From a bacterium (GTDB taxonomy: Bacteria; Patescibacteriota; UBA1384; CAILIB01): a stretch of 64,000 nucleotides of DNA. The position numbers were made by a program, and so were the translations under genes. Under the pieces are notes generated by a model. The model saw only the letters and a program-made list of their open reading frames with translations. It was not told where the DNA came from and did not search any database. This document shows positions 1,877 to 58,498 of the stretch, piece by piece (the stretch's first letter is position 1; each line of letters opens with the position of its first letter). The DNA lies in contig JBAXRQ010000001.1 in NCBI GenBank assembly GCA_037131105.1, positions 66,039-130,038 of the forward strand, written 5' to 3'.

Positions 1877-1965
1877 AGCGTCAGGCAGTTGCTTATTGCT
1901 GCCTCCGCAGTACCGAATGGTTAGTTCAGTTTGAGGACAGTAGCAATAAGCAACTGCCTGACGCT
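1877..1965. promoter_or_regulatory. 24-bp perfect inverted repeat with a 41-nt loop, overlapping the stop codon of the antiporter gene
   Basis: agcgtcaggcagttgcttattgct at 1877-1900 and its exact reverse complement at 1942-1965. Confidence 0.6.
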
Positions 1966-3667
1966 AATCATAGTACAGCGCGTGGTTCTTGGCCTTTAGT
2001 AGCTTCAGCTCCTCGGCCTGCTGCTTGATGAAGCCGCGCAGCTCGTGATGCTCGTACTCGCTGATCAGGTCAGCTACATGCTCGCCGCCAAGCAAATGGG
2101 GCAGGATGACGTAATTGGCGCCCAGCTTGTAGTATTCCAGGGCGTCGTCGATGTGGTGGCTGGTGACGATAAGAATCGGCTTCTTGTGATGCGCCTTCAC
2201 CTCATTGATAAGGAAGGTGGTCTCCTGGCTGTGGGGGATGGTCGAGATGATCATCGAGGCCTTGTCGGCCTGGATTAGCTCCAGAATGTCCTCGTCCTGT
2301 ACGTCGCCGTACAGGCAGTCTACGCCCTGCTCCTTGAGCCGGCGGATGATGTCGGGATTGAAGTCCACTACCAGCACCCGATGGTGCAGAGCCCGCAGCT
2401 TGCTGAGGATGTGGTAGCCCATGCGGTGATAGCCGAAGATGATAATATGGTTCTCCAGCTCCTTCTCCTCGGCCAAATACAGGTGTTCGCGACCGTTGTG
2501 CTCAATGTGGCGCAGCGGCTTGCGGACTAGGTTATAGAGCCTCTCACGGTTATTGAGCAGGATGGTCGAGACAAAGATGGAAGCGATGGTGGTGAAGACG
2601 ATGCCGGTGGCGATATCGGAAGAGATCTGTCCCTGGGCCAGGCCGATGCTTACCAGTATCAAGGAGAACTCACTCATCTGTCCTAGGCTTAGCGAGGTGA
2701 GGAAGGCTGTGCGGTTCCGGAAGCCGCGCAGGTGCAGGGTAATAAAGGTCATCAGGGGCTTCACGATGACCGTGATGACCATCATGCCACCGATCAGGGC
2801 GTAGATGGAGGGACCGGGTATGGAAAGCTCGGTGCCGAAGCTTACAAAGAGCAAAATGACGAAGAAGTCCCTCAGCGACCTCAGGCGGCTTAGGATATCC
2901 AGGCTGTACGGCAATGCCGCCAGGCTGACGCCGGCCAGGAAGGCGCCGATCTCTACCGGGAAGTCATAATACGATCCGGCAATGGCCACTACGAAGCACC
3001 AGGCCAGACTGGCCAGGAAGAGCAGCTCACCTGACCTGGCAATCCTTCTGAACAGGCGTGGCAGTACGTACTGGGAAAGGAAGTAGAGGATGGCCAGTAG
3101 GGCCAGTGACTTGAGTAGCAGTAGCAAGAGCAGGCTACCGGTGCCCAGGCTGCTGGGGCTGCCGACGCCACCCAGCACTATCATCACAATGATGGCAGCC
3201 ACATCTTGGAACAGCAGCAATCCAACCGAGAGGCGGCCGTGCAGGGAGTTCATGTCCCGGGACTCGGAAAGGATCTTGATGACGATAACCGTAGAGGAGA
3301 AGGAGAGGGCAGCCCCCAGATAGATGCCGGTAAGCACCGGAAGACCAAGTACTGTGCTTAAAAGGTAGCCAGCCAGGAAGCTGCCACTGACCTGGGCGCT
3401 GCCGATCAGGAAGGTAGTGGCTAATTGGTGCTTGGTCTTGCTCCAGTCAAGTTCCAGTCCGACCAGGAAAAGCAGCAAGGCGATGCCGATCTGGCGAATG
3501 CCCTCGAACAGGTTCTGGTTCTGAATGAAGTGGGCACCGATGGGGCCGAGAATGACGCCGGCGATGATATAGCCCAGTATCGGAGGCTGCTTGAGTAGGC
3601 GGACCGCCAGAGCGCAAAACGTGGCGGCGGCCACCACTACGCCTATTTCGGTAAAGATCGTGTTCAT
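1964..3667 (-). CDS. monovalent cation:proton antiporter (CPA2/Kef-type) with C-terminal RCK/TrkA-N domain
   Basis: about 12 TM N-terminus, then IIIFGYHRMGYHILSKL...VVDFNPD Rossmann-type RCK domain. Confidence 0.85.
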   Translation of the reverse strand: MNTIFTEIGVVVAAATFCALAVRLLKQPPILGYIIAGVILGPIGAHFIQNQNLFEGIRQIGIALLLFLVGLELDWSKTKHQLATTFLIGSAQVSGSFLAGYLLSTVLGLPVLTGIYLGAALSFSSTVIVIKILSESRDMNSLHGRLSVGLLLFQDVAAIIVMIVLGGVGSPSSLGTGSLLLLLLLKSLALLAILYFLSQYVLPRLFRRIARSGELLFLASLAWCFVVAIAGSYYDFPVEIGAFLAGVSLAALPYSLDILSRLRSLRDFFVILLFVSFGTELSIPGPSIYALIGGMMVITVIVKPLMTFITLHLRGFRNRTAFLTSLSLGQMSEFSLILVSIGLAQGQISSDIATGIVFTTIASIFVSTILLNNRERLYNLVRKPLRHIEHNGREHLYLAEEKELENHIIIFGYHRMGYHILSKLRALHHRVLVVDFNPDIIRRLKEQGVDCLYGDVQDEDILELIQADKASMIISTIPHSQETTFLINEVKAHHKKPILIVTSHHIDDALEYYKLGANYVILPHLLGGEHVADLISEYEHHELRGFIKQQAEELKLLKAKNHALYYD

Positions 3668-5053: not shown

Positions 5054-5740
5054 ATGGTTAAGTTTTCGACGATTCTCGTTTTGCTTGCTGTTTTTTCCGG
5101 GATGGCCCATGCGGCAATCAACGTGGAGAGCGTTACTACCACAGCGGTGGTAAATACGTTAGCGGTTGATCAACTGGACGACTCGTCTAGCATCGCTAAA
5201 TACATCTTCCACGATGCTGCGGCCCACCAGGTCGCAACGGGCAGCTACTGTCTGCGAGTCAACTCGACGCTGGTCATCTCGACCACCGACTACAGTCAGT
5301 GTGCTACCCTCGACATGAGGGCCGACCTGAGTGGTCCCAGCGGGACGGTCTGCCTTACCAATAGGGTGGAGAAGACCGTCCAAAATAGGGATGTGGCGTC
5401 GGGCCAGTATCAATGCGCCCATCGCCAAGCGGTGAGGGCAGCAGCGTACTGCATGGTCGGTCTGATACGTAACCAGATCGAATCTTGGGAGCGTAACTGC
5501 CGCCACCCGTACATCACGGGGCCTTACTACTCTGACCAGGTCTGCACGACGCCGCGCCGGTATTGCGAGCCGCCGGTAGTCTACACGACGCCGCGCCGGT
5601 ATTGCGAGCCGCCAGTGGTCGTCATCGAGAGCCATTTCGGGGGTGGTAGAAGTCGTTTCCCCGTTAATATCATCATCCCTGTGCAGCCACAAGGCTGTCG
5701 GGATGACAGGAGGGGAGGTTATCGCCACTACGGGCGCTAA
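5054..5740 (+). CDS. secreted Cys-rich hypothetical protein with tandem TTPRRYCEPPVV repeat
   Basis: signal peptide MVKFSTILVLLAVFSGMAHA; 39-nt unit repeated twice. Confidence 0.6.
   Translation: MVKFSTILVLLAVFSGMAHAAINVESVTTTAVVNTLAVDQLDDSSSIAKYIFHDAAAHQVATGSYCLRVNSTLVISTTDYSQCATLDMRADLSGPSGTVCLTNRVEKTVQNRDVASGQYQCAHRQAVRAAAYCMVGLIRNQIESWERNCRHPYITGPYYSDQVCTTPRRYCEPPVVYTTPRRYCEPPVVVIESHFGGGRSRFPVNIIIPVQPQGCRDDRRGGYRHYGR
5546..5623 (+). repeat. 2 x 39-bp in-frame tandem repeat inside the CDS
   Basis: acgacgccgcgccggtattgcgagccgcc(g/a)gt(a/g)gtc(t/g)(a/t)c repeated. Confidence 0.8.
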
Positions 5741-6775: not shown

Positions 6776-7548
6776 TGTACGACGCCGCTAAGGCCTGATG
6801 GCGGGGTGCCTGCATTGATATTTCCATCCACGGTGGCCTGGATAGATCCGTACAGAATAATTTTGGCAAAGATGGTGATAATGAGACCGGCATAGACAGC
6901 GATGAGGATGGTCTTGGCCTTTTTGACGTTTGCCTCACTGGCAAAGCCGGCGATGTACAGGAGTCCGGCATAGACGGTGAAGATGACCGCAAGAGCGCCA
7001 GCCGCCCAGTTTATAAGGGTAAGCCCCTTGTAAGAGAAAAATCTGAAGACGTCCAGACCCCAGTCTGCCGGAGGACAGGCGTTGGCGCCGGTGGCGTCGG
7101 GGCGAAGGTTATCAGGAATAAGGGGAAATACTGTATTGGCTGCCGGTTCCAGCACTTCAATAGTGCAGCCAGTGATGGGGGCTGGTGGATCTGCGATGGG
7201 AAGCGGTGTAGCCGGCTTGGTGTCTGGCTTGGTGTCCGGTTTAGTACCAGGTTTGGTACCCGGTTTAGTACCCGGCTTGGTGCCCGGCGGATCAGCTGCC
7301 AGAGTCCGTGAACTGGATACATCGCCCAATGTTCGTTCCTGAATAGACACAGTCGAATCCACTACGGCGGCCTGTGGCTTGGTGACAGTAAGGGTGGGGG
7401 CCAGAGCAAAAAGCAGTAGGCTTCCCCCGATGGTGACGGGAACGCCAATCAAGGCTGTCTTTGACTGCCAGCCAGTAGGTCCGCCGCTGCTCCTGGGAGC
7501 CGGCTTTGAGTGGGGGAAGGATTTTCCGAGGAAGGACTTCTTGGGCAT
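6772..7548 (-). CDS. TrbC/VirB2-like membrane protein, paralogue 3, with K-P-G-T repeat linker
   Basis: C-terminal VYAGLLYIAGFASEANVKKAKTILIAV-TM module; start placed at the ATG at 7548 (MPKKSFLGK..., signal-like) rather than the ORF-track 7593 start, which overlaps the upstream gene. Confidence 0.55.
   Translation of the reverse strand: MPKKSFLGKSFPHSKPAPRSSGGPTGWQSKTALIGVPVTIGGSLLLFALAPTLTVTKPQAAVVDSTVSIQERTLGDVSSSRTLAADPPGTKPGTKPGTKPGTKPDTKPDTKPATPLPIADPPAPITGCTIEVLEPAANTVFPLIPDNLRPDATGANACPPADWGLDVFRFFSYKGLTLINWAAGALAVIFTVYAGLLYIAGFASEANVKKAKTILIAVYAGLIITIFAKIILYGSIQATVDGNINAGTPPSGLSGVVQ
7213..7288 (-). repeat. 12-nt x 6 in-frame tandem repeat encoding (K/D)PGT
   Basis: ggcttggtgtct / ggtttagtacc(a/c) units on the + strand. 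Confidence 0.8.
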
Positions 7549-10695: not shown

Positions 10696-12003
10696 ATGCC
10701 CCAGTTTCCAGTGGCTTGCAAGGGTGGCCCGGACCTTGGAAATGCGGTAATGTACAGAGGTATGGCATATCTCTCTACACTCATTGCCTGGGCTCGCCGC
10801 CGCCCTGCCTCTGCCTTGCTCGCTGTCTTGGGAGTGGTCGCATTTGCAATTGGTATCTGGGCCCGGCTATATCACCTGGGAACTCCTAGTTCGCAGGTGT
10901 TTGACGAGGTCTATTTCCCGGTTTTTGCCAATGATTATCTGACCCACGTCAACTTCTTCGACGTGCATCCGCCGCTGGGTAAGTTCATCATCGCCCTAGG
11001 GGTCTGGGTATTCGGCAATGTGCCGTTTGGTTGGCGGATCATGCCGGCAGTGTTTGGCTTGGGTCTACCGGTGCTAGGCGGCTTCACTTGGTATTGGTGG
11101 CGCAAGGAGAGGCTGGGCGCCCTGCTGTTCGCAGTCTTTCTGGCTATTGAGACGATACTCATTGTCTATTCTCGCACCGGGCTGATGGACGGCATCCAGA
11201 CCTTCTTCATACTGGCTGTGTTTGCGGCGGCGGTGCGGATCAAGCGGCCCGAGCAGGTGGTCTGGGTGGCCTTGCTGCTGGGCATGGCTTGTGGGGTCAA
11301 GTGGATTTCACTGGGAGTCATCGTGCCGGTTCTCTATGTGATGTGGCGGCGGAAGTTGTTACTTCCGTTTCTGTTGAGTGTGCCGGTGGTTTTGGCGGCG
11401 TACCTGGTAGTCGTGGTGGTCGGCCAGGCACTTACGGGCTCTACCGATCCCTGGCAGGGTATGGTGCTATGGCACCAACAGGCCTGGGGCTATCAGCTGG
11501 GACTCACCGCCACCCATCCGTGGAGCTCGAAGTGGTGGAGCTGGCCGCTGATGCTGAGGCCGGTACTCTTTTATTACCAGTCCGATGACCAGGGTCGCAT
11601 AATGATGATTACCGCGCTAGGCAATCCCATTCTCTGGTGGAGTAGTACTGCAGCGGTAGTAGTTAGCCTTTTCGTGGTAATCAATGCCTGGTGGCAGGCC
11701 GGGTGGAGGAAGATGCTTGAGCATCCGCTTGTACCGTTGCTGCTCGGCTGGTCGGCACTATTTCTGCCGTTTATCCCGGTACACCGGGTCATGTTCATTT
11801 ATCATTACCTGCCGTCATATGCGTTTGCCATGCTGATGCTGACCGATCTGCTGGGCCGGATCTGGAAGCGCTCGCCCTGGCCGGTGGTGCTGTTTGTGGC
11901 AGTGGTGCTGGGGATCTCAATCTACTACCTGCCCTTTGCCATGGGTCTGCCGCTTAGTCCTGAAGGAAACCAGCAGCATCTCTGGCTGCAGTCGTGGCTC
12001 TAG
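10696..12003 (+). CDS. dolichyl/polyprenyl-phosphate-mannose--protein O-mannosyltransferase (GT39/PMT family)
   Basis: DEVYFPVFANDYL...FFDVHPPLGK signature loop, polytopic; true start may be M19 or M23. Confidence 0.75.
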   Translation: MPQFPVACKGGPDLGNAVMYRGMAYLSTLIAWARRRPASALLAVLGVVAFAIGIWARLYHLGTPSSQVFDEVYFPVFANDYLTHVNFFDVHPPLGKFIIALGVWVFGNVPFGWRIMPAVFGLGLPVLGGFTWYWWRKERLGALLFAVFLAIETILIVYSRTGLMDGIQTFFILAVFAAAVRIKRPEQVVWVALLLGMACGVKWISLGVIVPVLYVMWRRKLLLPFLLSVPVVLAAYLVVVVVGQALTGSTDPWQGMVLWHQQAWGYQLGLTATHPWSSKWWSWPLMLRPVLFYYQSDDQGRIMMITALGNPILWWSSTAAVVVSLFVVINAWWQAGWRKMLEHPLVPLLLGWSALFLPFIPVHRVMFIYHYLPSYAFAMLMLTDLLGRIWKRSPWPVVLFVAVVLGISIYYLPFAMGLPLSPEGNQQHLWLQSWL

Positions 12004-12741: not shown

Positions 12742-13002
12742 TTAGTCGATGACCATATCCCAGAATTCAGGGGGAAAGTTGCTTTGGGAATCGTCGAGCC
12801 ATCTTAGCGTAGGAATCACTACTGTCTCATTGCGATGGGCAAGTTTCGCACATACCAGTCGGAGACGAGCGGTCTCAACCTGCGTGTGCGTTGCGCGTCC
12901 CGATATCTTCATATTTCGCAATCTTCTGTACCTCGCCTTGGCCCTTTTTACTGTGTGAGCCAATTGCGACGGACTTTTTGGGGAATCAAGATTCAGTACC
13001 AT
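12742..13002 (-). CDS. possible small basic protein (86 aa)
   Basis: internal ATG preceded by AAGGAG at 5 nt spacing; no recognisable domain. Confidence 0.3.
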   Translation of the reverse strand: MVLNLDSPKSPSQLAHTVKRAKARYRRLRNMKISGRATHTQVETARLRLVCAKLAHRNETVVIPTLRWLDDSQSNFPPEFWDMVID

Positions 13003-13217
13003 GATGCTCCTTTGCATGGTCGATACGGGGGTATCAGCCTACTGTCTCAAGAGTACTATTTTGGGGGAGAAAGTACAGGTACTTTGCCCGGCAGGAATGT
13101 GCCCTTCGGGCACCGCTTCCCGGTCTGCAGCGGCCGCTTAGGCGGCCTTGCTTACGCCGGGAGCACGAACGAACCTGCATCTATCGTAAGAAGGTCGCAG
13201 GTTCTTTCAGTTGAACG

Positions 13218-13263
13218 CACCAAAGAAAAAGAACCAACCGAAGTTGGTTCTTTTTCTTTGGTG
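13218..13263. terminator. terminator hairpin after tRNA-Arg; stem extends into the tRNA 3' end
   Basis: caccaaagaaaaagaaccaac-cgaa-gttggttctttttctttggtg; the same 38-nt trailer follows tRNA-Met at 56175. Confidence 0.75.
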
Positions 13264-13334
13264 CGCCCGGCAGGAATCGAACCTGCGACCTTCTGGACCG
13301 CAACCAGACGCTCTATCCCCTGAGCTACGAGCGC
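13259..13334 (-). tRNA. tRNA-Arg; anticodon reads GCG, CCA encoded
   Basis: manual cloverleaf GCGCTCG/CGGGCGC acceptor, TTCGATT T-loop, anticodon loop TTGCGGT; close to E. coli tRNA-Arg(ACG) overall. Confidence 0.8.
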
Positions 13335-13437
13335 AAACACTTTGCGGTTAATCTCACTTACCTCCTTCTCTAAGCGGAAGGTCTTCGCTGGTGTGGGACA
13401 CACACAGTGGAAACCATTCAGACCCTAGGACTCGCCT

Positions 13438-13470
13438 CCCGGCGGTCCGTCGCCTGAGCTACGAGCGCGA
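13438..13470 (-). repeat. degenerate copy of the tRNA-Arg 5' end (17 nt identical, then diverges)
   Basis: cctgagctacgagcgc shared with the tRNA-Arg 5' acceptor and D-arm. Confidence 0.5.
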
Positions 13471-13605
13471 ACAGTGGTGCCGACGACCGGCTTTGTGCGG
13501 ATAACAGGGTAACTATAGCGGAACCTGGTCTTTTTGGCAATGATCCGGGGCTATCCCCATATTGGAAAAGCTATGCTACGGTAAAAGCGACCCTAACTTC
13601 TCCTT

Positions 13606-29912: not shown

Positions 29913-30102
29913 GCTCTTGGGAGGTATGGGGAATTATTACAGATACATTCGTAGTTGATTGAGGCCGGGAATCTCACAAACTCCCTCCGGTCGTTTCAAA
30001 GGGCCCCTCGGCCCTTTGCGCTCGCTTCGCTCGCTGAACCCGCCGCGGGAGAACTCCCGTTCTCCCGACCCCTCTCCCGTTCGAATCCCGACTCTCGACC
30101 AA

Positions 30103-30136
30103 ACAAAAAAGACCGTCCTAAGGACTGTCTTTTTTG
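30103..30136. terminator. terminator hairpin after tRNA-Ser(GCT)
   Basis: aaaaaagaccgtcc-taa-ggactgtctttttt. Confidence 0.7.
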
Positions 30137-30138
30137 TT

Positions 30139-30229
30139 CTGGCGGAGAGGCCGGGATTCGAACCCGGGAAACCCTTTTGGAGTTTAACTCGTTAGCAGTG
30201 AGCCGCTTTCGACCACTCAGCCACCTCTC
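30139..30229 (-). tRNA. tRNA-Ser (anticodon GCT), type II, CCA encoded
   Basis: manual cloverleaf; 3-bp D-stem, long variable arm, anticodon loop CTGCTAA; close to E. coli tRNA-Ser(GCU). Confidence 0.85.
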
Positions 30230-30287
30230 CACGTCCTCCAAGGTATCATAAACCAGATACCAGGACAAGCTGAGATAATCTGGGAAC

Positions 30288-32037: not shown

Positions 32038-32105
32038 AAGGATATGGTAGCAGGAGTTTAACGTAAAGGAATTCGCCCTTCGGACTTGCTGCTAGAGCAA
32101 AGGTT

Positions 32106-32165
32106 GTCCTCGCTGCGCGCTAACAGCGCGGAGGTTTCCGCTCGGACACTAGCCGGTCCTCCCGG
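32106..32165 (-). repeat. conserved roughly 60-nt element, copy A (also at 45814-45875)
   Basis: CCGGGAGGxCCGGCTAGxGTCCGAGCGGAAACCTCCGC-[hairpin]-GCAGCGAGGAC; internal hairpin differs between copies but keeps pairing. Confidence 0.6.
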
Positions 32166-32202
32166 ATCGGCGTCGCCTGGTTTCGATCCTTTACCCTCCG
32201 CC

Positions 32203-32239
32203 AAATGAAAAAGTACCACTTAGTGGTACTTTTTCATTT
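32203..32239. terminator. perfect hairpin after tRNA-Ser(TGA), core of a longer imperfect IR (32178-32264)
   Basis: aaatgaaaaagtaccac-ttag-gtggtactttttcattt. Confidence 0.75.
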
Positions 32240-32323
32240 GGCGGAGGGTAAAGGAATCGAACCTTCAACATTGCTGTTGGTCCGGTTTTCAAGACCGGTT
32301 ACGAGCCACTCGTACTACCCTCC
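32239..32323 (-). tRNA. tRNA-Ser (anticodon TGA), type II, CCA encoded
   Basis: manual cloverleaf; anticodon stem CCGGT/ACCGG, loop CTTGAAA, variable arm CAACA-GCAA-TGTTG. Confidence 0.85.
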
Positions 32324-45431: not shown

Positions 45432-45605
45432 CTAGACCTGGGCGGGTTTTTCAGATATGGTACGGGGGTAATCCCGTGATGCAGAACGTTCACTCGGGTC
45501 GTACTCGCAGCTATGCTGCTCGTGGGTCTGTCTACGCACTGCGTGCGTAGCCTCCCTCGCTCGGACCAAGCTGTCCAAGCAAGCTTGACAGCTTTCTCCT
45601 CACTC

Positions 45606-45680
45606 GGGTCTGTAGCTCAATGGTAGAGCAGTGGCCTTTTAAGCCATTGGTTGTGGGTTCGAGTCCCACCGGACCCACCA
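45606..45680 (+). tRNA. tRNA-Lys (anticodon TTT), CCA encoded
   Basis: manual cloverleaf; anticodon loop CTTTTAA; T-loop TTCGAGT. Confidence 0.9.
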
Positions 45681-45775
45681 CAAGTATGCCCTCAGAAAAC
45701 TGATCGACTCAAGGGAGCCTGTCTACAGTATCCCTCCGGGATACGTCTCAAAAGTTTTCTGAGGGCATACTTGTG
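45679..45775. repeat. 23-bp perfect inverted repeat with a 51-nt spacer, starting at the tRNA-Lys 3' end
   Basis: cacaagtatgccctcagaaaact ... agttttctgagggcatacttgtg; spacer has its own small hairpin tatccc-tcc-gggata. Confidence 0.75.
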
Positions 45776-45813
45776 GTGTGAAAAGGGGACTCAAACCCGT
45801 GGGCGAAGCCGGC

Positions 45814-45875
45814 CCGGGAGGGCCGGCTAGCGTCCGAGCGGAAACCTCCGCACTTGTCGGTGCGGCAGCGAGGAC
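45814..45875 (+). repeat. conserved roughly 60-nt element, copy B, followed by a degenerate half-copy at 45887-45914
   Basis: same consensus as copy A; hairpin gcacttgtcggtgc. Confidence 0.6.
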
Positions 45876-45994
45876 GAGTCCTTTTCCGGGAGGGTTGGCT
45901 AGGACGTGAGCGGTATCCTCTGTGCGCGTCCCGCACCAGCGAAGGTCTTCCTCGTAGTGCTCCCGATTGAGTTTCAGGCAAAGTTGTTTGTTGT

Positions 45995-56097: not shown

Positions 56098-56174
56098 AGC
56101 GGGGTGGAGCAGCCCGGAAGCTCGTCTGGCTCATAACCAGAAGGTCGTTGGTTCAAATCCAACCCCCGCTACCA
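56098..56174 (+). tRNA. tRNA-Met (CAT), initiator-like body, CCA encoded
   Basis: AGCGGGGTGGAGCAGCC...CTCATAA...GGTTCAAATCC, close to bacterial tRNA-fMet but with an A1-U72 pair and only two G-C pairs in the anticodon stem. Confidence 0.8.
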
Positions 56175-56213
56175 AAGAAAAAGAACCAACTTCGGTTGGT
56201 TCTTTTTCTTTGT
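56175..56213 (+). terminator. terminator hairpin, same 38-nt sequence as the tRNA-Arg trailer
   Basis: aagaaaaagaaccaac-ttcg-gttggttctttttcttt. Confidence 0.8.
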
Positions 56214-56410
56214 CAGGAAGCTGGATTTGAACCGTGAGTTGGGTCGGAAGAACAGTAGTTCTTCCGTGGAGGAAGGTAGCCGCGAAGCGGCGTCAAGGAA
56301 ACCGTGGGTTTCCTGAAACGAGCGAAGTGCCTGCCGGAGGCGGCCGAAGCACTGGCGCTTCTCGCGTAAGCAAGCGGAGCGCTGCAGACGAGAAAGCCGT
56401 GGAGCGTAGC

Positions 56411-56445
56411 GGAACCGTTTGTTCAATTCCCAACCCCCGCATTGC
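56411..56445 (+). repeat. degenerate direct copy of the tRNA-Met 3' end (T-arm + acceptor + CCA)
   Basis: cgtttgttcaattcccaacccccgcattgcca vs tRNA cgttggttcaaatccaacccccgctacca. Confidence 0.5.
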
Positions 56446-58196: not shown

Positions 58197-58368
58197 TAGG
58201 TTTCTACTACCAGTATACTACATGGTCGGATGGGGGAGAACGTAGCGAAGGTAGTACACTGGGCCGCTCCTGAAATGTTCAAATGAGGGGGAATGGATGG
58301 CCTTCGCTGGTGCGCGACGTGACAGATGAGTCACTCTGGCCATAGCCGATTCTCCCGGATCAGCGTCT

Positions 58369-58443
58369 AATTCCCGCCCCTGCCACCAAAAAGAGAACCA
58401 TCTAAAATAAATGGTTCTCTTTTTGGTGGCAGGGGCGGGAATT
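58369..58443. repeat. 33-bp perfect inverted repeat (9-nt loop) containing the tRNA 3' 20 nt
   Basis: aattcccgcccctgccaccaaaaagagaaccat-ctaaaataa-atggttctctttttggtggcaggggcgggaatt. Confidence 0.85.
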
Positions 58444-58498
58444 GAACCCGCGACCAAGAGCTTATGAGTCTCCTGCTCTACCCCTGAGCTACCCTGCC
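58424..58498 (-). tRNA. tRNA with CAT anticodon, body closest to tRNA-Ile2 (lysidine) type; elongator Met possible
   Basis: GGCAGGGTAGCTCAGGGGTAGAGCAGGAGACTCATAAGCTCTTGGTCGCGGGTTCAATTCC...; resembles E. coli tRNA-Ile2. Confidence 0.8.

Follow-up and report, generated by a model that had tools for sequence, protein, structure and literature searches.

The tRNA loci of the window

The stretch analysed here (the window) comprises 64,000 nucleotides of a bacterium of the Patescibacteriota (assembly GCA_037131105.1, contig JBAXRQ010000001.1, positions 66,039 to 130,038 of the forward strand), and the subject of this report is the layout found at its transfer RNA (tRNA) genes. ARAGORN and Rfam identify the same six tRNAs, with no further one in the 8 kb and 7 kb beyond the window ends. 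On the 3' side of all six, a hairpin flanked by A and T tracts is followed by an inverted copy of that tRNA's own 3' end, as a first-pass annotation made from the sequence had noticed, the copy being degenerate at four of the loci. The order of parts is tRNA 3' end, terminator-like hairpin, inverted copy (R'), structured insert (X) and a second, partial copy of this tRNA 3' segment in direct orientation (R2). This layout matches the tRNA of each individual locus, recurs in relatives and includes inserts with covarying structure. The first-pass annotation described the hairpin and R', and missed R2, the structured inserts, copies of the tRNA 5' end at the Arg and Lys loci and the conservation in relatives.

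When each tRNA is read 5' to 3', the hairpin begins right after the encoded CCA, its stem lies between the A-tract and the T-tract, and R' directly adjoins it. X is non-coding, rich in hairpins and about 70-200 nt long. R2 lies 125-265 nt beyond the tRNA 3' end. At 10 of the 15 loci considered its first position falls within tRNA positions 56-60, in the T-loop. The tRNA's own 3' segment is present in direct, inverted and again direct orientation, with R' as the middle arm. The parts, locus by locus, are the following.

58424..58498, minus strand: tRNA-Met (CAT), here Met2 (ARAGORN and Rfam)
58389..58423, minus strand: Met2 terminator-like hairpin (A-tract, stem, 9-nt loop, stem, T-tract)
58369..58388, minus strand: Met2 R', perfect inverted copy of tRNA positions 57-76 (TGGTGGCAGGGGCGGGAATT)
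58295..58368, minus strand: Met2 insert, motif class X(A)
58281..58294, minus strand: Met2 R2, degenerate direct copy from T-loop position approx. 58
32239..32323, minus strand: tRNA-Ser (TGA) (ARAGORN)
32204..32238, minus strand: Ser(TGA) terminator-like hairpin
32179..32203, minus strand: Ser(TGA) R', tRNA positions 54-76 inverted (an exact match over 17 nt followed by a single indel)
32102..32171, minus strand: Ser(TGA) insert, motif class X(A)
32063..32081, minus strand: Ser(TGA) R2, direct T-arm copy (ATTCCTTTAC perfect)
30140..30230, minus strand: tRNA-Ser (GCT) (ARAGORN)
30102..30139, minus strand: Ser(GCT) terminator-like hairpin
30075..30101, minus strand: Ser(GCT) R', tRNA positions 47-71 inverted, in degenerate form
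29974..30074, minus strand: Ser(GCT) insert, X-core class (GGGGTCGGGAGAAC...GTTCTCCCGCGG)
29961..29973, minus strand: Ser(GCT) R2, direct copy of tRNA positions 57-69
13259..13334, minus strand: tRNA-Arg (GCG) (ARAGORN)
13222..13258, minus strand: Arg terminator-like hairpin
13189..13221, minus strand: Arg R', inverted copy of tRNA positions 76 to 41 (ends perfect, middle scrambled)
13086..13178, minus strand: Arg R2, direct T-arm copy (49-57 and 58-70), interrupted in the T-loop by a 71-nt X(B) insert (13099-13169)
13376..13473, minus strand: upstream of tRNA-Arg, direct copy of the 5' flank and tRNA positions 1-16 (13453-13473), then an X(A) motif (13376-13448)
45606..45680, plus strand: tRNA-Lys (TTT) (ARAGORN)
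45681..45773, plus strand: Lys long hairpin, 26-nt arms including CACCA, 51-nt spacer with a nested hairpin
45774..45803, plus strand: Lys R', degenerate inverted copy, T-arm part GGGACTCAAACCC retained
45808..45951, plus strand: two X(A) motifs (45808-45875, 45880-45951) flanking Lys R2 (45875-45887)
56098..56174, plus strand: initiator-type tRNA-Met (CAT), here Met1 (ARAGORN and Rfam)
56175..56211, plus strand: Met1 terminator-like hairpin
56212..56233, plus strand: Met1 R', complement of T-loop and T-stem (positions 52-63) perfect, acceptor part decayed
56234..56415, plus strand: Met1 insert, X-core (56234-56324) and X(B) motif (56358-56397)
56416..56440, plus strand: Met1 R2, direct copy of tRNA positions 48-71

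The Met2 palindrome (arms 58369-58401 and 58411-58443) is perfect over 33 nt, of which 20 are the terminal nucleotides of the tRNA and 13 belong to the trailer, just as first reported; the decreasing perfection described for the other loci is also accurate. The Ser(TGA) palindrome (32187-32255) has perfect arms of 33-34 nt. The inverted repeat of Arg consists of 23 perfect nt and a second inverted block of 16 nt (tRNA positions 41-56), that of Met1 of 18 nt and a 12-nt block complementary to the T-arm, and Ser(GCT) has an 18-nt hairpin with a degenerate inverted copy over approx. 25 tRNA positions (47-71). The Arg R' extends backwards over positions 76 to 41 and is followed by the forward segments 49-57 and 58-70. 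The Met2 R' ends at position 57, and after the insert the tRNA sequence resumes in R2 at approx. 58. Thus, R' is an arm common to two back-to-back palindromes, one centred on the terminator and the other on X. RNA folding and RNAalifold both predict that the closing helix of X is formed by R' and R2. The open reading frames seen over the tRNAs (e.g. 12835-13323, 29955-30251 and 56169-56426) are spurious, a correct if trivial remark of the first reading.

Some further observations concern single loci. The terminator hairpins of Arg and Met1 (13221-13258 and 56175-56212) are identical over 38 nt, loop orientation included, with inserts behind them that are only approx. 70% alike; on sequence grounds, this identity suggests recent copying or conversion between two loci that are 43 kb apart. 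Upstream of Arg (13376-13473) and Lys (45490-45560) the tRNA 5' end is partly repeated in direct orientation, together with 5 nt of its upstream flank, and a hairpin-rich insert separates the copy from the intact tRNA in an arrangement that mirrors that of the 3' side; in L078 and L085 partial copies of the tRNA 5' end are found downstream of tRNA-fMet. The tRNA with anticodon TGA (32239-32323), assigned to Ser by ARAGORN, scores 50.8 bits with the Rfam model of tRNA-Sec (threshold, 47 bits) and has an odd D-arm, but it is most probably a tRNA-Ser because its anticodon is not TCA.

Comparison with chance and with other terminators

To estimate the expectation by chance, the last 25 nt of each tRNA were reverse-complemented and aligned locally with the 150 nt downstream of it, 1413 mismatched tRNA/flank pairs serving as controls (mean score 5.99, standard deviation 1.12, 99th percentile 9.0, maximum 12.5). 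The window tRNAs scored 20, 19, 12.5, 12, 9.5 and 8.5, so that five of the six exceed the 99th percentile of the controls, and the regularity is beyond chance, as had been claimed. No tRNA reached a score of 12 with its own upstream flank. The score obtained for Arg is too low because its inverted copy is split into two blocks. A corresponding score for direct copies over all tRNAs was dropped as a statistic, since tRNA arrays confound it. The inverted copies match the tRNA of each locus, which excludes a single repeated mobile sequence, part of what the first-pass annotation had named as contrary to its proposal.

A scan for a terminator consensus omitted the hairpins, because their T-run pairs with the upstream A-tract and is counted as stem; when they are read directly, a stem and a run of 5-9 T are present at every one. 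In 79 kb, the four terminator-like palindromes of protein genes have arms of 10-14 nt as compared with 18-33 perfect nt for the tRNA palindromes. Long palindrome arms are thus specific to the tRNAs. Two features known from other processes are found at these loci: a reverse-complement copy of the flank of a hairpin that is contiguous with its stem, as in quasi-palindromes made by template switching, and a direct repeat (R2) of the 3' part of a tRNA that starts in the T-loop, as in attachment (att) sites.

Integrity of the assembly

In an independent Logan assembly (SRR7053528) the flanks are 100% identical to the window and the contigs break at the palindromes. Logan contigs L002, L026 and L028 end exactly at tRNA palindromes (window positions 13250, 32199 and approx. 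30200), as might be expected if the palindromes were chimeras introduced during assembly. However, they are internal to contigs of 283 kb (ENA ERZ27300165) and 949 kb (the NCBI metagenome-assembled genome), the independent assembly has the same flanks and the same layout is present in many independent samples, so that an assembly artefact is unlikely, with a probability close to negligible. tRNA palindromes break short-read assemblies and may therefore be under-reported in metagenome-assembled genomes.

Structured inserts

Three conserved structured motifs, X(A), X-core and X(B), are newly defined here and can be used as search queries. X(A), of approx. 70 nt, occurs five times in the 64 kb and always adjacent to a tRNA: after Ser(TGA), twice after Lys, after Met2 and upstream of Arg. 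Its first hairpin, with GGGAG as the loop, is followed by CUAG, by a covarying helix interrupted by GA/GA internal loops, by a hairpin of variable sequence and by CAGCGARG; a pseudoknot of GGGAGG with CCUCC is possible. Ten of its 20 predicted pairs are changed on both sides, with a covariation score that was matched by none of 500 shuffles, and its tRNA-sense strand contains 9 G-U cells versus 3 A-C cells.

X-core is found behind Met1 and Ser(GCT) (window 56234-56324 and 29974-30074) and in L032, L087, L151, L152, L129 and L136 among the relatives, in the last two behind other tRNAs. Invariant in it are GGGTCGG, a 9-bp hairpin (P1) in which 98.6% of the cells are paired and four pairs show compensatory change, and YGGNGG; a second hairpin reads AACC-GNG-GGTT. 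In several uncultured lineages its placement is constant, on the strand of the tRNA and downstream of it. X(B), at Arg and Met1, consists of CGTAAGCAAG, a hairpin and GCTGCAGAC within a covarying stem. Insert-like sequence in 79 kb lies solely beside tRNAs, and folding of X is strand-specific.

At the gathering score, Rfam 15 returned only tRNAs and no family for any X insert, and at permissive E-values the matches to the inserts were at chance level, the best being a ylbH leader with 17 bits versus a threshold of 50 bits. A pattern scan for X(A) in genome contigs gave 22 matches, approximately the number expected by chance and none adjacent to a tRNA; the genome of the window did not appear among them. 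X(A) and X-core were not found in scans of viral contigs, the inserts had no BLAST match in phages and plasmids, and in 1.1 Mb of fetched loci a covariance model of X-core had no match beyond the eight copies on which it was trained. Readings of the inserts as HDV-like (hepatitis delta virus), hammerhead or twister ribozymes, of X as box C/D guides or K-turns, and of X(A) as derived from tRNA-Ser were dropped, as each was based on resemblance alone, without support from a model.

The structures of X are conserved and strand-biased and suggest that X is a trailer RNA made by read-through. In E. coli a small RNA (sRNA) is encoded between the dual terminators of the rRNA operons (PMC8144298). The likeness would lie in a short structured RNA between a first, leaky terminator and a second one, obtained by read-through, the RNA of the window being a putative one; unlike the present loci, the E. 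coli sRNAs carry no copies of the end of the upstream gene.

Conservation in relatives

The FtsH protein of the window is 70-77% identical to those of approx. 50 uncultured clusters and approx. 60% identical to those of Berkelbacteria and Patescibacteria, and other window proteins are approx. 50% identical to those of the syntenic relative L032. The uncultured relatives that bear the layout look like Patescibacteria. Among relatives identified through the M24 peptidase (identity of 48% or less) synteny is lost and no tRNAs are present.

The first-pass annotation had proposed that relatives be checked for the inverted copies, and these are indeed present. At the initiator tRNA locus the order of hairpin, R' and X is kept in 9 of 9 lineages (the window, L032, L087, L151, L152, L155, L115, L070 and L127). 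In all nine, R' contains a perfect complement of tRNA positions 54-65 along with a decayed complement of the acceptor strand, and it follows lineage-specific changes in the T-stem (GTTAG/CTAAC in L032; GCAGG/CCTGC in L115, L070 and L127). The layout is not universal, since at the Met2 and Lys orthologues of L032, L152 and L155 R' is missing or only degenerate; for Met2, specifically, it is absent in L032 and L152, degenerate in L155 and perfect in the window. The same logic of layout, with other inserts, is found in L103 (at tRNA-Asp), L045 and L105. In L155 (20402-21036) a HepT-like/MNT toxin-antitoxin pair follows tRNA-Lys at a distance of approx. 250 bp, of interest here only in that tRNA 3' ends are the targets of some HEPN toxins.

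Several relatives carry larger arrangements. In L087 R' and X stand between the two copies of a perfect direct repeat of approx. 56 nt (tRNA end, terminator and GCGT). L127 has two perfect tandem copies of a unit of approx. 185 nt (terminator, R', X and R2) and, behind them, a third terminator that lacks R'. In L032 R2 with CCA precedes a different second terminator and a further inverted copy. More generally, R2 is often trailed by CCA and a terminator of its own (L032, L087, L045 and L136).

The inverted similarity extends to position 41 in Arg and to position 44 in L070, and the hairpins with their A-tract and T-tract are symmetric, features that bring to mind a convergent pair of tRNA genes sharing a bidirectional terminator, R' being what is left of an inverted second gene decayed from its 5' end. 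This explanation is very improbable, as at no locus does the inverted similarity go past position 41, neither ARAGORN nor Rfam detects an antisense or pseudo-tRNA, and R2, the arrays and the conserved X motifs are left unexplained.

In L129 (approx. 11330-11400) R2 ends ...GCCAGCACCA, while the adjacent tRNA gene reads ...GCCAGCAC followed by AAAAA, with no encoded CCA. This R2 may be the original end of the gene or a copy of a mature tRNA. R' itself could be similar to a primer-binding site left by tRNA-primed or snap-back reverse transcription, complementary to the last 18-20 nt of the tRNA and ending near position 58. The modified base m1A58 stops reverse transcriptases. R' of Met2 covers positions 57-76 and starts with TGG, and the breakpoints of R2 and R' cluster at positions 56-60, in agreement with such a process, as is the CCA of R2 in L129. 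Yet neither a reverse transcriptase gene nor long terminal repeats (LTRs) are found nearby, the loci are old and vertically inherited, and in L105, L127 and L087 the duplicated segment includes trailer and terminator and must therefore have been copied from DNA rather than from mature tRNA. Overall, reverse transcription is given scarcely any weight.

Comparison with known systems

The literature searches returned no description of a layout of tRNA, hairpin, R', X and R2; the inverted arm, its presence at every tRNA of the window and the conserved inserts are new. The nearest documented case is the trailer of E. coli tyrT-tyrV (178-bp repeats, tpr and RttR), which parallels the R2 copies and the tandem unit of L127. 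When the tyrT trailer was checked, the last 19 nt of tRNA-Tyr were found to recur four times downstream, 178 nt apart and all in direct orientation, with the RttR sRNA annotated. Tandem units that each close with a direct copy of the tRNA 3' end are likewise found in L127 (two perfect units), L087 and L032. The E. coli copies show no inversion, the inverted arm being an addition of the present layout; the repeats there follow a single tRNA operon, whereas here the layout is found at all six tRNAs, and no similarity in sequence to the X motifs is present.

Other identities were considered and rejected. For a T-box riboswitch, a leader that pairs with the tRNA NCCA end ahead of genes for aminoacyl-tRNA synthetases or amino acids, the downstream genes are unrelated (M24 peptidase, DUF4232, metallophosphoesterase, amidase) and no Rfam match is found. 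Transfer-messenger RNA and its permuted form scored 11.2 and 12.5 bits in Rfam versus a threshold of 47. As an inverted pseudo-tRNA or antisense tRNA the copies fail, as the similarity stops at tRNA positions 41-57 and neither ARAGORN nor Rfam reports one. An LTR primer-binding site has the expected complementarity at Met2 and Ser(TGA), but there is no LTR or reverse transcriptase there.

Integrative elements are the other obvious comparison. K. Williams reportedly classified, in 2002, the att-site repeats of integrative elements in tRNA genes, with the T-loop as one class of sublocation. As in these att repeats, R2 is a direct repeat of the 3' part of the tRNA from the T-loop onwards, and several may accumulate at one tRNA; in contrast to them, what lies between the repeats is 100-250 nt of non-coding hairpins, and an inverted copy is not expected from an integrase. 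Neither integrase nor cargo genes are found between the repeats, where only 70-200 nt of non-coding sequence is present, and no integrase Pfam occurs in the gene calls, which cover the window except for approx. 13.7-20.9 and 42-50 kb. The suggestion, made in the first reading, of target-site remnants of a tRNA-targeting element agrees with the start of R2 in the T-loop and not with the gene content of the parts of the window with gene calls.

The attC sites of integrons and attP(+) of CTX phage are recombination sites folded from a single strand. The loci resemble them in the imperfect palindrome whose folded stem mimics a double-stranded target, in cassette arrays separated by palindromes and in strand-specific folding, and differ in that the arms are tRNA-specific, GTTRRRY core sequences are absent and no linked IntI or Xer, nor any other recombinase, is found in the available gene calls. 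From this comparison a non-autonomous mobile cassette of approx. 200 nt (X, R2, terminator and R') can be envisaged, moving as single-stranded or dumbbell DNA with an R2:R' stem that mimics the 3' end of a tRNA gene. By analogy with attC and CTX attP, recombination in the T-loop would give tRNA, terminator, R', X, R2 and native terminator. Such a cassette predicts the order and orientation of every part, the start of R2 in the T-loop, arrays closed by a terminator that lacks R' (as in L127) and long direct repeats without mismatch (as in L087), and it is in line with the identical 38-nt terminator of the two loci that share X(B), with the five tRNA-adjacent X(A) copies in 64 kb and with the strand specificity of X folding. 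It is nevertheless improbable. The tRNA-specific arms imply no movement between different tRNAs, the X-core copies are old and orthologous rather than recent copies within a genome, no recombinase appears in gene calls covering most of the window, near-identical strains show no polymorphism, viral contigs, phages and plasmids hold no copies, and at Met2 a fresh palindrome stands beside an old R2.

Origin and possible function of the layout

The origin of the layout was probably mutational. The explanation that is favoured here, though with somewhat less than even confidence, is that the hairpins of terminator and T-arm seeded repeated fold-back and tandem duplication of the DNA, the copies being kept matched to the tRNA by conversion and X being a read-through trailer RNA. 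Fold-back (template-switch) copying at the terminator hairpin would generate R', and R2 would stem either from a tandem duplication or from copying that turned round once more, at the hairpin of the T-arm. Conversion within the palindrome and between the repeats would then keep the copies matched, with the selected tRNA as the master copy. The X inserts would be conserved structures acting on the same strand as the tRNA. R' would be absent from the terminated pre-tRNA, because it lies beyond the U-tract, and in read-through RNA it would trap the 3' half of the tRNA.

Template switching has been documented to create and maintain perfect stems (PMC8794818). Like the layout, the mutations described there give a reverse-complement copy beside an existing hairpin; they make perfect arms in one event, and recurrent events can keep a stem perfect. 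The layout differs in arms of up to 33 nt that include a functional tRNA end and are present at every tRNA of the window, and in the alternation with direct copies and the persistence over deep divergence. Template-switch duplication, an option already put forward in the first-pass annotation, is the preferred origin.

Met2 and Ser(TGA) have perfect palindromes beside decayed R2 copies, so that the palindrome has been renewed independently of R2. Also in favour are the clustered starts of R2, the duplications in L087, L127 and L032, the agreement of R' with lineage-specific T-stem changes and the structure of X with its predicted R':R2 closing helix. The variation among Met2 orthologues fits a gain or renewal of R' in particular lineages, although those with and without R' come from relatives too distant (approx. 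50% protein identity) for the events to be reconstructed, and the perfect repeats of L087 and L127 show loci that, by their sequence, are still rearranging.

A number of observations weigh against fold-back and duplication. In R' of Met1 the part that is kept (the 54-65 complement) is the farthest from the centre of the palindrome and the nearest part has decayed, a pattern opposite to that of homogenization outward from the centre and therefore pointing to selection on pairing. The X-core copies cluster by tRNA locus across genomes rather than by genome, and have thus been retained since an early date, but the sequence on either side of them agrees in every case with the local tRNA. The palindromes at protein-gene terminators (four in 79 kb) show no growth, so that a factor specific to tRNAs would be needed. 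Finally, near-identical strains (L155-L158 and L152-L154) reveal neither gain nor loss of a cassette, and no intermediate or presence/absence polymorphism.

The main rival to fold-back and duplication is a selected RNA function, in which R' is kept for pairing with the T-loop and the 3' strand of the T-stem of the tRNA, or with R2. R' could close a conserved trailer RNA in which T-stem, acceptor 3' strand and CCA are reproduced, thereby mimicking the 'top half' or 3' end of a tRNA, or it could misfold read-through transcripts and so mark them for degradation, e.g. by RNase III. The perfect complementarity of 12-15 nt to positions 54-65 in 9 of 9 initiator lineages, which tracks the T-stem while its neighbours decay, would be accounted for, as would the frequent CCA and terminator of R2 and the conserved, covarying and G-U-biased X motifs of the tRNA-sense strand. 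Moreover, the extended hairpin is far stabler than the cloverleaf: in read-through RNA the computed values are −80 versus −34 kcal/mol, and the hairpin would win. Against a selected RNA, R' lies past the U-tract and is missing from terminated transcripts, the absence of the layout at Met2 and Lys orthologues of some relatives makes it non-essential, the acceptor-like helix is not conserved at Met1 and the inserts have no Rfam match. By taking these points together, selection on an RNA is regarded as rather unlikely. A sequestering of the tRNA 3' end, another idea of the first-pass annotation, is possible on the computed energies, but it would be limited to read-through RNA, because of the position of R' beyond the U-tract.

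That the loci represent an undescribed tRNA-linked class in which R' is a working part rather than a scar, either trailer RNAs that mimic the 3' end or 'top half' of a tRNA or hairpin-ended (dumbbell) units of approx. 200 nt spreading at tRNA 3' ends, is a real possibility, if the less likely one. If the inverted arm and the inserts were functional, they would form an undescribed class of RNAs or mini-elements linked to tRNAs, able to copy the neighbouring tRNA's 3' end or to pair with it, with a bearing on tRNA 3'-end processing, protection and targeting in bacteria with a minimal RNA-processing machinery. If the layout were only mutational, it would be an unusually clear natural record of hairpin-seeded fold-back or template-switch duplication, with the tRNA, a gene under selection, serving as the master copy for neighbouring repeats and with tRNA terminators as hot spots in reduced genomes.

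Other repeats in the window

Two further sets of repeats were encountered away from the tRNAs. The stop codon of a Na+/H+ exchanger gene (1964-3667, minus strand) is abutted by a perfect 24-nt inverted repeat with a 41-nt spacer (1877-1965), which resembles in style the long hairpins after tRNA-Lys and after the Met2 orthologue of L032. Short tandem repeats are present inside open reading frames near genes of the T4SS-pilin family, at 5540-5620 and 7208-7288 (39 nt in 2.1 copies; 12 and 24 nt in 6.8 and 2.6 copies).

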